NCBI GenBank assembly: GCA_036009105.1
Contig: DASYMJ010000043.1
Location: 25,658 to 89,657 of the forward strand
Length of the DNA stretch: 64,000 nucleotides
Direction of reading: 5' to 3'
DNA from: Thermoanaerobaculia bacterium
GTDB lineage: Bacteria; Acidobacteriota; Thermoanaerobaculia; Gp7-AA8
How positions within the stretch are numbered: position 1 is the stretch's first letter; the number at the start of each line of letters is the position of its first letter. Below are positions 27,993 through 29,306 of this stretch, in pieces. A model generated the notes under the pieces. The model did not search any database, was not told the origin of the DNA, and saw only the letters and a program-made list of their open reading frames with translations. The translations under genes and the position numbers were made by a program.

Positions 27993-29306
27993 ATGGATCA
28001 CGTCGCGGTCATCGGCGGCGGGCTGGCCGGCTCGCTCTTCGCGCTGCGCCTGGCCCGGCAGGGGCATCGCGTCGACGTGTACGAGCGGCGTCCCGATCCG
28101 CGCCTGCGCCGCGGCGAAGGCGGCCGGTCGATCAACCTGGGCCTTTCCAAGCGCGGCATCGCCGCGCTGGGCGAGGTCGGCCTGCGCGAGGAGGTGCTCT
28201 CGCTCGCCGTGCCGATGGAGGGCCGCGTGATCCACACCCTGGACGGCGTGGAGCGCTTCCAGCCGTACGGCAAGAACCGCCAGGAAGTGCTGCACTCCAT
28301 CGACCGCAACGAGCTGAACGACCTGCTCCTCGATCGCGCCGAGGCTCATTCGCAGGTGCGTCTGCACTTCGAGCATCGCTGCGTCGGCGTCGATGCTGCC
28401 GCGCGCACCATCCTGGTCGCGGATGCTTCCGGCGCGGTCAGGCCGGTCAGCGCCGACTGGGCGGTCGGCGCGGATGGGGCGTTCTCCAAGATCCGGGAGG
28501 AGATGCAGCGCGGCCAGCGGGCGAACTTCAGCAAGGAGTTCCTGGAGTGGGGCTACAAGGAGCTGAACCTCCCCGCCCGCGCCGACGGCACTTCGCAGCT
28601 GCGCCTGAACGCCCTGCACGTGTGGCCGCGGGGCCACTGCCTCATCGTGTCCCACGCCAACCGCAACGGCTCGCACACCCTGACGCTGTTCCTGCCGTTT
28701 GAAGGCGCCGACAGCTTCGCCACCCTGCGCACGCCATCCGACATCAGCTCCTTCTTCGCCCGCTACTTCCCCGACCTCGTGCCGCTGTTGCCCGAGCTGC
28801 TGTCGCAGTGGGAGAGCCACCCGGTCGGCTCGCTCGTCACCACCCGCACCACGCCGTGGCACCTGGCGGATTGGATCGTCCTCGTCGGCGATGCCTGCCA
28901 CGCCGTCTATCCGTTCTACGGGCAGGGGATGAACTCCGCGTTCGAGGACTGCTCCGCCCTCGCCGCCGCCCTGGCCGCCCACCCGGCCCGCCTGGATGCC
29001 TTTCGCGCCTACGAGCGCTCCCGCCGCCCCCACACCGACACGCTGGCCGAGCTCTCCAAGGAGAACTTCGTCGAGCTCCGCCAGCGCGTGCAGTCGCCCC
29101 TTTTCGTCCTGCGCAAACGGATGGACGTCTGGCTCAACCGCCTCGCGCCGTCGACCTGGCTCCCCCTCTACACGATGATCGCCCACACCACGATGCCGTA
29201 CGGCGACGCCCTGGCCCGCGCGCGGCGGCAGGACCGGTTGCTGTTGTCGCTGGCCGGCGCCTGCGGGGTGGCAGTGCTGGGGGCGCTGGCGCTGCTATTG
29301 GGGTAA
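27993..29306 (+). CDS. kmo: Kynurenine 3-monooxygenase (FAD-dependent), with a hydrophobic C-terminal tail
   Basis: The FAD fold is [15 protein letters not shown]. KMO-specific segments are [35 protein letters not shown] and [25 protein letters not shown]. These closely match the Pseudomonas KMO motifs FERRPDPR/RGRSINLAL, NALHIWP and [23 protein letters not shown]. The C-terminal 22 aa ([22 protein letters not shown]) are hydrophobic. The start is 3 nt after the upstream stop. Confidence 0.85.
   Translation: [437 protein letters not shown]

Follow-up and report, generated by a model that had tools for sequence, protein, structure and literature searches.

We analysed a 64,000-nucleotide stretch of contig DASYMJ010000043.1 from a Thermoanaerobaculia bacterium (hereafter the window), with a focus on the open reading frame (ORF) at 27993-29306 on the + strand. 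The ORF is the last gene of an operon for a nonribosomal peptide synthetase (NRPS) and encodes a kynurenine 3-monooxygenase (KMO)-like protein. This protein and the product of the gene directly before it, a DUF6875 protein of the cytochrome P422 family, are probably the two halves of a conserved tryptophan-tailoring unit, sometimes made as a single polypeptide, in an orphan NRPS cluster. We propose that the KMO-like protein is a KMO-family hydroxylase, putatively tail-anchored, with a remodelled pocket and a dedicated P422 partner, which would act on 1-hydroxytryptophan or tryptophan and not on catabolic kynurenine. We give this proposal even chances.

The ORF encodes a member of the KMO family

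The ORF starts with ATG at 27993, ends with TAA at 29304-29306 and encodes 437 amino acids; analysis of the G+C content at third codon positions (GC3) showed that it is the coding frame. The product is a class A flavoprotein monooxygenase (PF01494, 4.5e-27) of a P422-linked group that we call the GLVHYL clade. The flavin adenine dinucleotide (FAD)-binding motif GGGLAG (GxGxxG) spans residues 8-13 (28014-28031, + strand), and its G8 and G10 are invariant in an alignment of 52 sequences. When the protein was compared with all PDB sequences, KMO from Pseudomonas fluorescens (PfKMO) was the best match (E 4.7e-88, 299 bits) and rat, human and yeast KMO made up the remaining top matches, the four together spanning E 4.7e-88 to 1e-61 and 299-211 bits. 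The first match outside KMO, tropone monooxygenase, reached 67 bits. The identity to PfKMO is 39% across 422 columns and the FAD motifs of the two proteins match.

An AlphaFold2 model of the protein (pLDDT 86, pTM 0.84) shows the three-domain fold of PfKMO. Foldseek aligned it to the PfKMO-kynurenine complex with a TM-score of 0.89-0.90 and to full-length rat KMO (6lkd) with a target-normalised TM-score of 0.93, and KMO structures occupied ranks 1-35 throughout. The model includes the KMO-specific C-terminal helical domain (helices 333-436), with 417-441 aligned columns to full-length P. fluorescens and rat KMO. This third domain, which contributes Y404 to the active site, is a feature of KMO (PMC5477544), and Y393 of the window protein aligns with Y404. 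The ORF thus encodes a genuine member of the KMO family by fold, sequence and FAD motif. The original prediction had placed it in this family and not with the UbiH/PheA-type hydroxylases, which the PDB scores and Foldseek ranks bear out, and the three segments that it had matched to Pseudomonas KMO are seen in the PfKMO alignment. It had also called the KMO assignment strong; this holds for the family and not for the reaction, as five ring-pocket positions differ invariantly and the protein lies on a separate branch. Among the NCBIfam models, the window protein passes no KMO model; its top match is VioC (NF053548) at 200 bits, with a cut-off of 760.

The partner gene encodes a cytochrome P422

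The gene at 27193-27990 (+ strand) encodes a DUF6875 protein (PF21780, 5.7e-57), and its stop codon lies 2 nt ahead of the ATG of the KMO-like gene. An alternative start, ATG 27241, gives a 249-aa product, as called on JGI contigs. The original prediction left this gene unrecognised; as the obligate and sometimes fused partner of the KMO-like gene, it reframes the question of what the flavoprotein does.

The DUF6875 family was renamed cytochrome P422 in a preprint of December 2025 (Ma et al., doi 10.64898/2025.12.11.692455). P422s carry a thiolate-ligated b-haem and act on free L-tryptophan, with hydroxylation of N1, C6 or C7 or with formation of a C-S bond; their in vitro turnover relied on a surrogate ferredoxin and ferredoxin reductase (Ma et al.). 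The published motifs are RxGxVCP for haem and Rx(M/L)x3Dx2F, Dx2(Q/H)x3K and MxGxF for the substrate, of which the DxxQxxxK motif anchors the free carboxylate of L-tryptophan (Ma et al.). A further DUF6875 protein, ZigI, was assigned a role in C-7 hydroxylation in a 2026 JACS paper (PMC13307353). The window P422 has all four motifs: haem RPGPVCP (at 81), SBR1 RHMVETDLPF (203), SBR2 DQVQSELK (156), which is the Gln form, and SBR3 MIGEF (172). A PDB search for a solved P422 structure returned a spurious weak match only.

Among the enzymes in the preprint's Supplementary Table 5, four relevant ones are scored "1-OH", which denotes an L-tryptophan N1-hydroxylase (Ma et al.): Rr391 from Rugamonas rubra (UniProt A0A1I4PGA9, 256 aa), Lc584 from Lysobacter capsici AZ78 (271 aa), Ls910 from Lysobacter sp. 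Root604 and Ls950 from Lysobacter sp. In R. rubra ATCC 43154 (L060), the ORF beside the KMO-like gene, read from MRASEVDRDY, encodes 256 aa and is identical to UniRef100_A0A1I4PGA9 by exact-sequence look-up. Therefore Rr391 is the P422 of the R. rubra cassette. The P422 of the L. capsici cassette has 271 aa, shares a 90%-identity cluster with AZ78_3566 of strain AZ78 and matches Lc584. The window P422 shares 46% identity with Rr391, and on the grounds of synteny and orthology to Rr391 and Lc584 it is most likely a tryptophan N1-hydroxylase.

The preprint names TDO (tryptophan 2,3-dioxygenase), kynureninase, tryptophanase, PRAI and IGPS as P422 neighbours, and a flavoprotein is not among them (Ma et al.). 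Its main text contains none of the words "FAD", "fused" and "Lysobacter", and a FAD partner is mentioned neither there nor in the supplement. As its similarity network took in only proteins of 180-300 aa, fusions of P422 with a KMO-like protein fell outside it.

The two genes are linked across five phyla

We surveyed 80 loci, with one genome per species, and identified the neighbours by tblastn with the window proteins. The P422 gene adjoins the KMO-like gene on the same strand in all 77 informative loci, which cover five phyla; the other three are cut at a contig edge. The cassette occurs in Acidobacteriota (Thermoanaerobaculia, Ca. Angelobacter, Ca. Solibacter, Bryobacteraceae), in Lysobacterales (many Lysobacter, Arenimonas, Thermomonas, Ahniellaceae), in Oxalobacteraceae (Rugamonas, Janthinobacterium, Duganella), in Pseudoalteromonas luteoviolacea and in Actinomycetota (Salinispora, Micromonospora, Actinoplanes, Actinokineospora, Saccharothrix and others). 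The order is KMO-like gene, P422, NRPS and major facilitator superfamily (MFS) gene in Actinomycetota and NRPS, MFS, P422 and KMO-like gene elsewhere. An NRPS is present in 72 of the 80 loci, a terminal reductase (R) domain in 61 and an MFS gene in 71.

The two enzymes are fused in 11 of the 120 closest homologues (62-100% identity). These proteins of 711-748 aa carry both PF21780 and PF01494, with an N-terminal P422 that has an intact haem motif, an Ala/Pro-rich linker of 30-70 residues and then the KMO-like domain. Actinobacterial pairs are never fused. Pfam-annotated contexts showed the same cassette in L. enzymogenes, L. capsici and Montanilutibacter psychrotolerans, the last with the fused form followed by a phosphopantetheinyl transferase gene.

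The genes that would make kynurenine or consume its products are not part of this arrangement. Pfam scans found no TDO or indoleamine 2,3-dioxygenase, Cyclase-type formamidase or kynureninase domain in any gene of the window, as the original prediction had stated. It had also allowed for a kynurenine operon just outside; sibling metagenome contigs that extend about 5 kb to the left and about 8 kb to the right hold no TDO, formamidase or kynureninase gene. The same three were found in 0 of the 77 loci.

Several loci show variations on this theme. In P. luteoviolacea S2607 (L063, 8084-21304) the P422 and KMO-like pair has 57% identity, the GLVHYL pocket and the hydrophobic tail. A weak TauD-like dioxygenase precedes it and a different and far larger NRPS (>3300 aa) with serine-type adenylation codes (DVWHFSLID) follows; the examined stretch contains no DAGDMGHVC module of the kind described below. 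In a gammaproteobacterial metagenome-assembled genome (MAG; L025, 3537-9354) the pair is followed by a Cupin_8/JmjC and ankyrin protein and by HlyD/ABC export genes. An MBOAT acyltransferase gene lies directly after the KMO-like gene in four loci from Ca. Angelobacter, Ca. Solibacter and Lysobacter sp. ISL-50 (L027, L032, L038, L014). Five cluster versions, from another Thermoanaerobaculia MAG (L009) and several actinomycetes (L067, L073, L084, L085), contain a PF00891 O-methyltransferase with a plant-type dimerisation domain. Its recurrence implies methylated congeners of the cluster product and is consistent with a phenolic or N-hydroxy group available for methylation; PF00891 presumably includes hydroxyindole O-methyltransferase. 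The Le-pyrrolopyrazine cluster of L. enzymogenes was rejected as a match for the cassette. It lies at about 2.5 Mb and is absent from L. capsici, whereas the cassette maps to about 5.5-5.6 Mb and L. capsici has it.

The clade has its own substrate pocket

The active-site residues of PfKMO in complex with L-kynurenine (PMC5477544) were mapped onto an alignment of 142 clade sequences; PfKMO numbering is used below unless the window protein is named. R84, Y98 and N369, the anchors of the carboxylate and amine of L-kynurenine (R78, Y92 and N358 in the window protein), are kept in 141-142 of the 142 sequences. N54, E195, L213, T236, F238, Y404 and the P318-G323 loop are invariant or nearly so. As the three anchors bind a free alpha-carboxylate and alpha-amine, their conservation argues for a free alpha-amino acid as the predicted substrate of the clade, and a substrate tethered to a peptidyl carrier protein (PCP) would be unlikely. 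The original prediction had considered a different ortho-aminoaryl substrate, perhaps PCP-tethered; a substrate other than kynurenine points the right way, and it is the tethered form that the invariant anchors speak against.

The residues around the ring differ from those of PfKMO: A56 is replaced by G, I106 by L, I224 by V, L226 by H, H320 by Y and M373 by L. Positions 56, 106, 224, 226, 320 and 373 thus read G-L-V-H-Y-L in 139-142 of the 142 sequences, which come from all five phyla. In the window protein, G50, L100, V219, H221 and L362 occupy the five positions that are unlike canonical KMO. A56, I106 and M373 are conserved from Pseudomonas to human (PMC5477544).

A HMMER search of 1.84 billion cluster representatives returned 1224 relatives at E <=1e-30, and the pockets were read in the best 150. 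The canonical A-I/L-I-L-(Y/F/H)-M pocket, which includes that of PfKMO, was present in 76 of these 150. G-L-V-H-Y-L was found there in this clade's representatives only (P0138, P0140 and one fragment), and about 70 representatives had other variant pockets. This diversity suggests that KMO-like specificities form a wide radiation that is still unexplored. In a crude neighbour-joining tree without support values, the GLVH sequences are monophyletic (20/20). Their sister group comprises 25 representatives whose pockets read T-(L/I)-x-x-Y-L; the canonical KMOs, PfKMO among them, lie further off. While the family is settled, the altered ring pocket and the separate branch mean that the KMO reaction is not implied for the KMO-like protein.

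Fusions in the wider KMO-like family are diverse. The partners include Cyclase/formamidase (P0159, P0177), an NRPS with C-A-T-C domains (P0209), an O-methyltransferase (P0198), an ABC transporter (P0141), GST (P0227) and HEAT repeats (P0147). P0159, the fusion to Cyclase PF04199, has the canonical signature, and the NRPS, O-methyltransferase, ABC transporter and GST fusions have variant pockets. The GLVHYL clade fuses to P422 only.

The hydrophobic C-terminus is a putative tail anchor

The last 22 residues of the KMO-like protein (residues 416-437; 29238-29303, + strand) form a hydrophobic tail, as the original prediction had noted, with a mean Kyte-Doolittle value of 2.3 across 19 residues. 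AlphaFold2 modelled it as the end of a single long helix, 403-436. A hydrophobic stretch of about 20 residues follows a conserved RRQ(D/E)R(I/L)L motif in all 120 closest homologues, fusions included. The sequence of the tail varies among them while its hydrophobicity is kept, as would be expected of a membrane anchor. Actinobacterial members have a weaker Ala/Gly-rich tail followed by Arg-rich sequence. The operon also encodes a polytopic GT87-like protein and an MFS pump, so a membrane-associated pathway is plausible. The C-terminus had been called eukaryote-like, but it is not specifically so, because 16 of the 76 canonical-signature KMO representatives have a comparably hydrophobic tail; 50 of the 76 clearly have none. 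The tail is a recurrent minority trait of the KMO family and not a eukaryotic hallmark.

The NRPS ends in an unusual module with a terminal reductase domain

Three genes on the + strand encode one module each, built from condensation (C), adenylation (A) and thiolation (T) domains by Pfam. Module 1 (15236-18502; C-A-T) starts with an intact HHxxxDG condensation domain and has the A-domain code DILQITLVY. Module 2 (18499-21834; C-A-T) has the code DILQLGVVW, a glycine-type call that rests on what we take to be the canonical code, DILQLGLIWK. Module 3 (21846-25886; C-A-T-R) ends in an NAD-dependent reductase and has the code DAGDMGHVC, with the specificity segment from about 23673. The codes were read against a GrsA-PheA fragment as a ruler, which is validated by its return of the textbook DAWTIAAIC code.

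The condensation motifs HHLLIDG, HHIAVDG and HHIISDG are intact. The terminal C domain resembles an ordinary condensation domain, with LgrA and Txo1/2 as the best PDB matches. The terminal reductase (PF07993, NAD_binding_4, 3.6e-50) follows the last PCP, has GATGFLG and YxxxK motifs and is most like MxaA. The NRPS therefore has the (C-A-T)n-R layout of reductive release.

About 65 loci, drawn from all the phyla, share the DAGDMGHVC code without change. The minimal actinobacterial clusters (L067, L073, L086) keep only the DAGDMGHVC module with its R domain, directly after P422. The code retains the frame D-A...(V/I)-C, as in PheA, with Gly at 239 (the pocket floor) and 301, Asp at 278 and His at 322, and reads as a deeper and more polar aromatic pocket. 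The string DAGDMGHVC(K) did not occur in the searchable literature. The order C-A-T, C-A-T(Gly), C-A-T-R is reminiscent of SfmA/B/C of saframycin (Ala-Gly-Tyr*), which would imply Pictet-Spengler chemistry, an analogy that we offer as an idea only.

Proposed pathway and alternatives

A possible pathway starts with P422 (27193-27990), which would N1-hydroxylate free L-tryptophan, a reaction shown for the cassette orthologues. The KMO-like enzyme would then bind 1-hydroxy-L-tryptophan or, as the two steps may occur in either order, L-tryptophan, in the pose of kynurenine and through the carboxylate and amine anchors. With NADPH, FAD and O2, a C4a-hydroperoxyflavin would hydroxylate the benzo ring, most plausibly at C7, because opening of the tryptophan ring gives kynurenine, whose C3 is the counterpart of indole C7. 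G56 and V224, which are smaller, would accommodate the pyrrole ring in its closed form, and the extra oxygen might be held by a hydrogen bond to H226. The doubly oxygenated tryptophan would be activated by the terminal DAGDMGHVC A domain of the C-A-T-R module. From the domain order, the residue would be joined to X-Gly, leave the NRPS through reduction to an aldehyde or alcohol, and be exported through the MFS protein. P422 and the GLVHYL enzyme would then be an undescribed two-step unit that makes an N1-hydroxy, ring-hydroxylated tryptophan (for example 1,7-dihydroxytryptophan), which the DAGDMGHVC domain would set at the C-terminus, the end freed by reduction, of a short peptide with Gly. 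We offer this fuller version tentatively and lean somewhat against it as it stands.

Several points weigh against our proposal. Flavin hydroxylases usually need a phenol or aniline, and indole C7 is not strongly activated; the C7 site would follow from geometric analogy. The order of the two hydroxylations and acceptance of the product by the A domain are likewise inferred, the hydroxylase function of the whole KMO-like clade is a prediction, and the P422 orthologues were active with surrogate redox partners in vitro, so that the substrate in vivo may differ. Every polar contact to L-kynurenine is kept in the clade. L226H aside, the substitutions in the pocket (A to G, I to L, I to V, M to L) are conservative, and Y320 is found in yeast KMO too (PMC5477544), so L-kynurenine might still fit. 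The absence of kynurenine genes covers the window, its flanks and the related loci, and the rest of the MAG was not searched for kynA or kynB.

These points bear most on the possibility that the enzyme is a genuine KMO. Housekeeping TDO and formamidase encoded elsewhere would supply L-kynurenine, the resulting 3-hydroxykynurenine would be loaded by the terminal A domain, and P422 would act independently on tryptophan or on the kynurenine-derived unit. All carboxylate and amine contacts, Y404 and most ring-lining residues (F238, P318, F319, G321, L213) are conserved, and the 39% identity to PfKMO exceeds the 34% between PfKMO and human KMO. KMOs also occur in secondary-metabolite clusters, such as those for pyrrolobenzodiazepines and actinomycin; quinolobactin is a further example. 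Because most pocket changes are conservative, we rate this alternative as less likely than our proposal, though as a serious rival to it. What tells against it is that the invariant GLVHYL signature is absent from all canonical representatives and that the clade lies on a separate branch. Furthermore, the enzyme adjoins or is fused to a tryptophan N1-hydroxylase and not to a kynurenine-forming enzyme, whereas the canonical-signature P0159 is fused to a formamidase-type domain. TDO, formamidase and kynureninase are missing from every informative locus, and a fusion of two enzymes that lie two unlinked pathway steps apart would be odd.

The position of the gene inside the NRPS operon would also suit an enzyme that tailors PCP-bound or peptide-bound tryptophan or kynurenine after loading. 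We consider this improbable, as the anchors for a free alpha-carboxylate and alpha-amine are all but invariant, P422 itself anchors a free carboxylate and works on free L-tryptophan, and the unusual invariant A code is what would be expected for choosing a pre-modified amino acid. Alternatively, the flavoprotein might serve chiefly as an NADPH-dependent electron donor to the P422 haem, like a fused P450 reductase. The surrogate redox partners that P422s needed in vitro, the lack of any ferredoxin or reductase gene seen in the cluster and the natural P422-KMO fusions would fit such a role. Strict conservation of the substrate residues and of a clade-specific pocket, however, makes no sense for a pure reductase, and the actinobacterial versions are never fused and have the opposite gene order. 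To our knowledge, class A flavoprotein monooxygenases do not reduce haem partners. Owing mainly to the conserved substrate pocket, we rate this role as very improbable. That an ordinary catabolic or NAD-biosynthetic KMO lies beside the operon by chance, a reading in whose favour the "kynurenine 3-monooxygenase" label in JGI and some NCBI records speaks, is scarcely credible, being already contradicted by synteny: the cassette is conserved across five phyla, the genes are translationally coupled and can be fused, and kynurenine genes are missing.

Relation to known systems

The KMO-like protein shares with PfKMO, which is presumably QbsG of the quinolobactin pathway, the residues R84, Y98, N369, Y404, F238, F319 and L213 and the P318-G323 loop. 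It differs in the six pocket positions, in its constant linkage to P422 and never to TDO, formamidase or kynureninase, which also sets the clade apart from canonical bacterial KMOs, and in its hydrophobic tail, as PfKMO is described without a transmembrane region (PMC5477544). The mammalian and yeast KMOs of the mitochondrial outer membrane resemble it in the KMO fold with its C-terminal domain and in a hydrophobic C-terminus, and the yeast enzyme also has the Tyr at position 320 (PMC5477544). Unlike in these enzymes, the tail is one short terminal helix right after the last KMO helix, membrane anchoring is putative, the pocket signature is different and the context is bacterial secondary metabolism.

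The clusters for porothramycin, sibiromycin, anthramycin and actinomycin also hold a KMO-family gene within an NRPS cluster that supplies an oxygenated tryptophan-derived unit. In such antibiotic clusters the KMO comes with the remaining pathway genes (TDO, kynureninase, methyltransferase), and 3-hydroxyanthranilate units are made, whereas the window cassette has none of these genes and the partner is a probable haem tryptophan N-hydroxylase. VioC and VioD of violacein biosynthesis, KMO-related flavoenzymes that hydroxylate indole rings, provide a family precedent for indole substrates. Their substrates are bis-indole pyrrole acids and not free amino acids; unlike VioC, for whose model the window protein scores far under the cut-off, the KMO-like clade keeps the amino-acid anchors. 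The closest parallel on the haem side is the route to 3-hydroxykynurenine termed "KMO bypass" (Ma et al.), which involves the same haem family, free L-tryptophan and NRPS clusters. In that route a P422 C7-hydroxylase with TDO replaces KMO, whereas here a P422 N1-hydroxylase co-occurs or is fused with a KMO-like enzyme; Rr391 and Lc584 of that study are enzymes of the cassette described here.

As classes, the KMO family, P422s and NRPSs with reductive release have been described before. Our literature searches found none of the KMO-like clade, its pocket signature, the pairing or fusion with P422, the invariant A code or the cassette product, and nothing relevant was returned on the use of 1-hydroxy- and N-hydroxytryptophan or by a search for further papers on cytochrome P422. 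Pipeline names such as "kynurenine 3-monooxygenase" or generic FAD oxidoreductase obscure that the protein belongs to a compact clade that spans phyla, has a pocket signature of its own and is tied to an obligate haem partner. If our proposal is correct, this would be the first KMO-family enzyme to hydroxylate free tryptophan or an N-hydroxyindole, and the chemistry of the family would widen from kynurenine to (N-hydroxy)tryptophan. It would also explain the fate of 1-hydroxytryptophan, which the 2025 P422 preprint found and placed in no natural product. The oxygenated residue could serve as a metal-chelating or electrophilic warhead. A P422 gene, a GLVHYL-type KMO-like gene and a DAGDMGHVC A domain would together provide a handle for genome mining, and L. 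capsici, L. enzymogenes, R. rubra, Janthinobacterium, Salinispora and Micromonospora would be culturable hosts for the peptide. As KMO is a drug target, G56, L106, V224, H226 and L373 also offer a concrete residue set on KMO substrate specificity.

The operon and its surroundings

The G+C content of the window is about 69%, and a third-position G+C frame plot shows that the + strand is coding without a break between about 11.5 kb and 29.7 kb. The run consists of the GT87-like gene, the DUF5916 gene, the three NRPS genes and the MFS, DUF6875 and KMO-like genes. By inspection of the start codons, these genes overlap or abut, with mostly ATGA-type junctions, and the KMO-like gene is translationally coupled to the NRPS operon. 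Its placement inside an NRPS operon, as originally predicted, is confirmed by these abutting genes. The first operon gene (11488-12978, + strand; PF09594), with GTG at 11488 and 496 aa as called on a JGI contig, encodes a GT87-like polytopic membrane protein, and the second (12975-15233, + strand; PF19313) a DUF5916/CBM9-like protein. The gene at 25883-27196 (+ strand) encodes an MFS exporter (MFS_3, EntS/Mef-like; PF07690, PF05977) that scores 243 bits with TIGR00900 and 96 bits with the EntS model.

DUF5916 homologues (47-53% identity) adjoin the cassette in Oxalobacteraceae and in two Acidobacteriota loci, and in Rugamonas, Janthinobacterium, Duganella and one Bryobacteraceae MAG the gene directly behind the KMO-like gene is a GT87-like homologue (41-44% identity). 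The two genes travel with the cassette in Oxalobacteraceae and several Acidobacteriota, in varying positions (downstream of the KMO-like gene in L040, L049-L051, L053, L057, L060 and L062; also in L016, L028 and L065) and are absent from the Actinomycetota versions. Their products may be part of the pathway and, in diderms, could for instance serve in export or in the handling of the envelope.

A scan for terminators 3' of the KMO-like gene found nothing. The next gene (29406-29735, + strand; PF04237) encodes a small YjbR-family protein whose membership in the cluster is doubtful; it was seen solely in identical sibling contigs and not in related loci. Convergent with the end of the operon, 29750-34043 on the - strand encodes a resistance-nodulation-division (RND) efflux pump (ACR_tran, 1024 aa) and a membrane-fusion protein. 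The pump is probably unrelated to the cassette, because it is not conserved beside it in other taxa.

On the other side, a metallo-beta-lactamase (MBL)-fold gene lies at 9829-10680 on the - strand. A sibling JGI contig flags it as PF23023 (Anti-Pycsar Apyc1), Lactamase_B and Lactamase_B_2, and it is probably a housekeeping MBL-fold hydrolase, although an Apyc1-type match is notable in the genome of a cell. Between a NUDIX gene on the - strand and the divergent first operon gene, we found an AT-rich array of inverted heptamers (11243-11325). Its arms, (GAATTGA[G/A])x4 and (TTTTCAA)x4, form a 31-bp stem (dG -47 kcal/mol, z = -10). The array is unique in the window, where the pattern matched 6 times and 0.01 matches were expected, and none of the 86 related loci searched has it; it may be a regulatory or terminator element.

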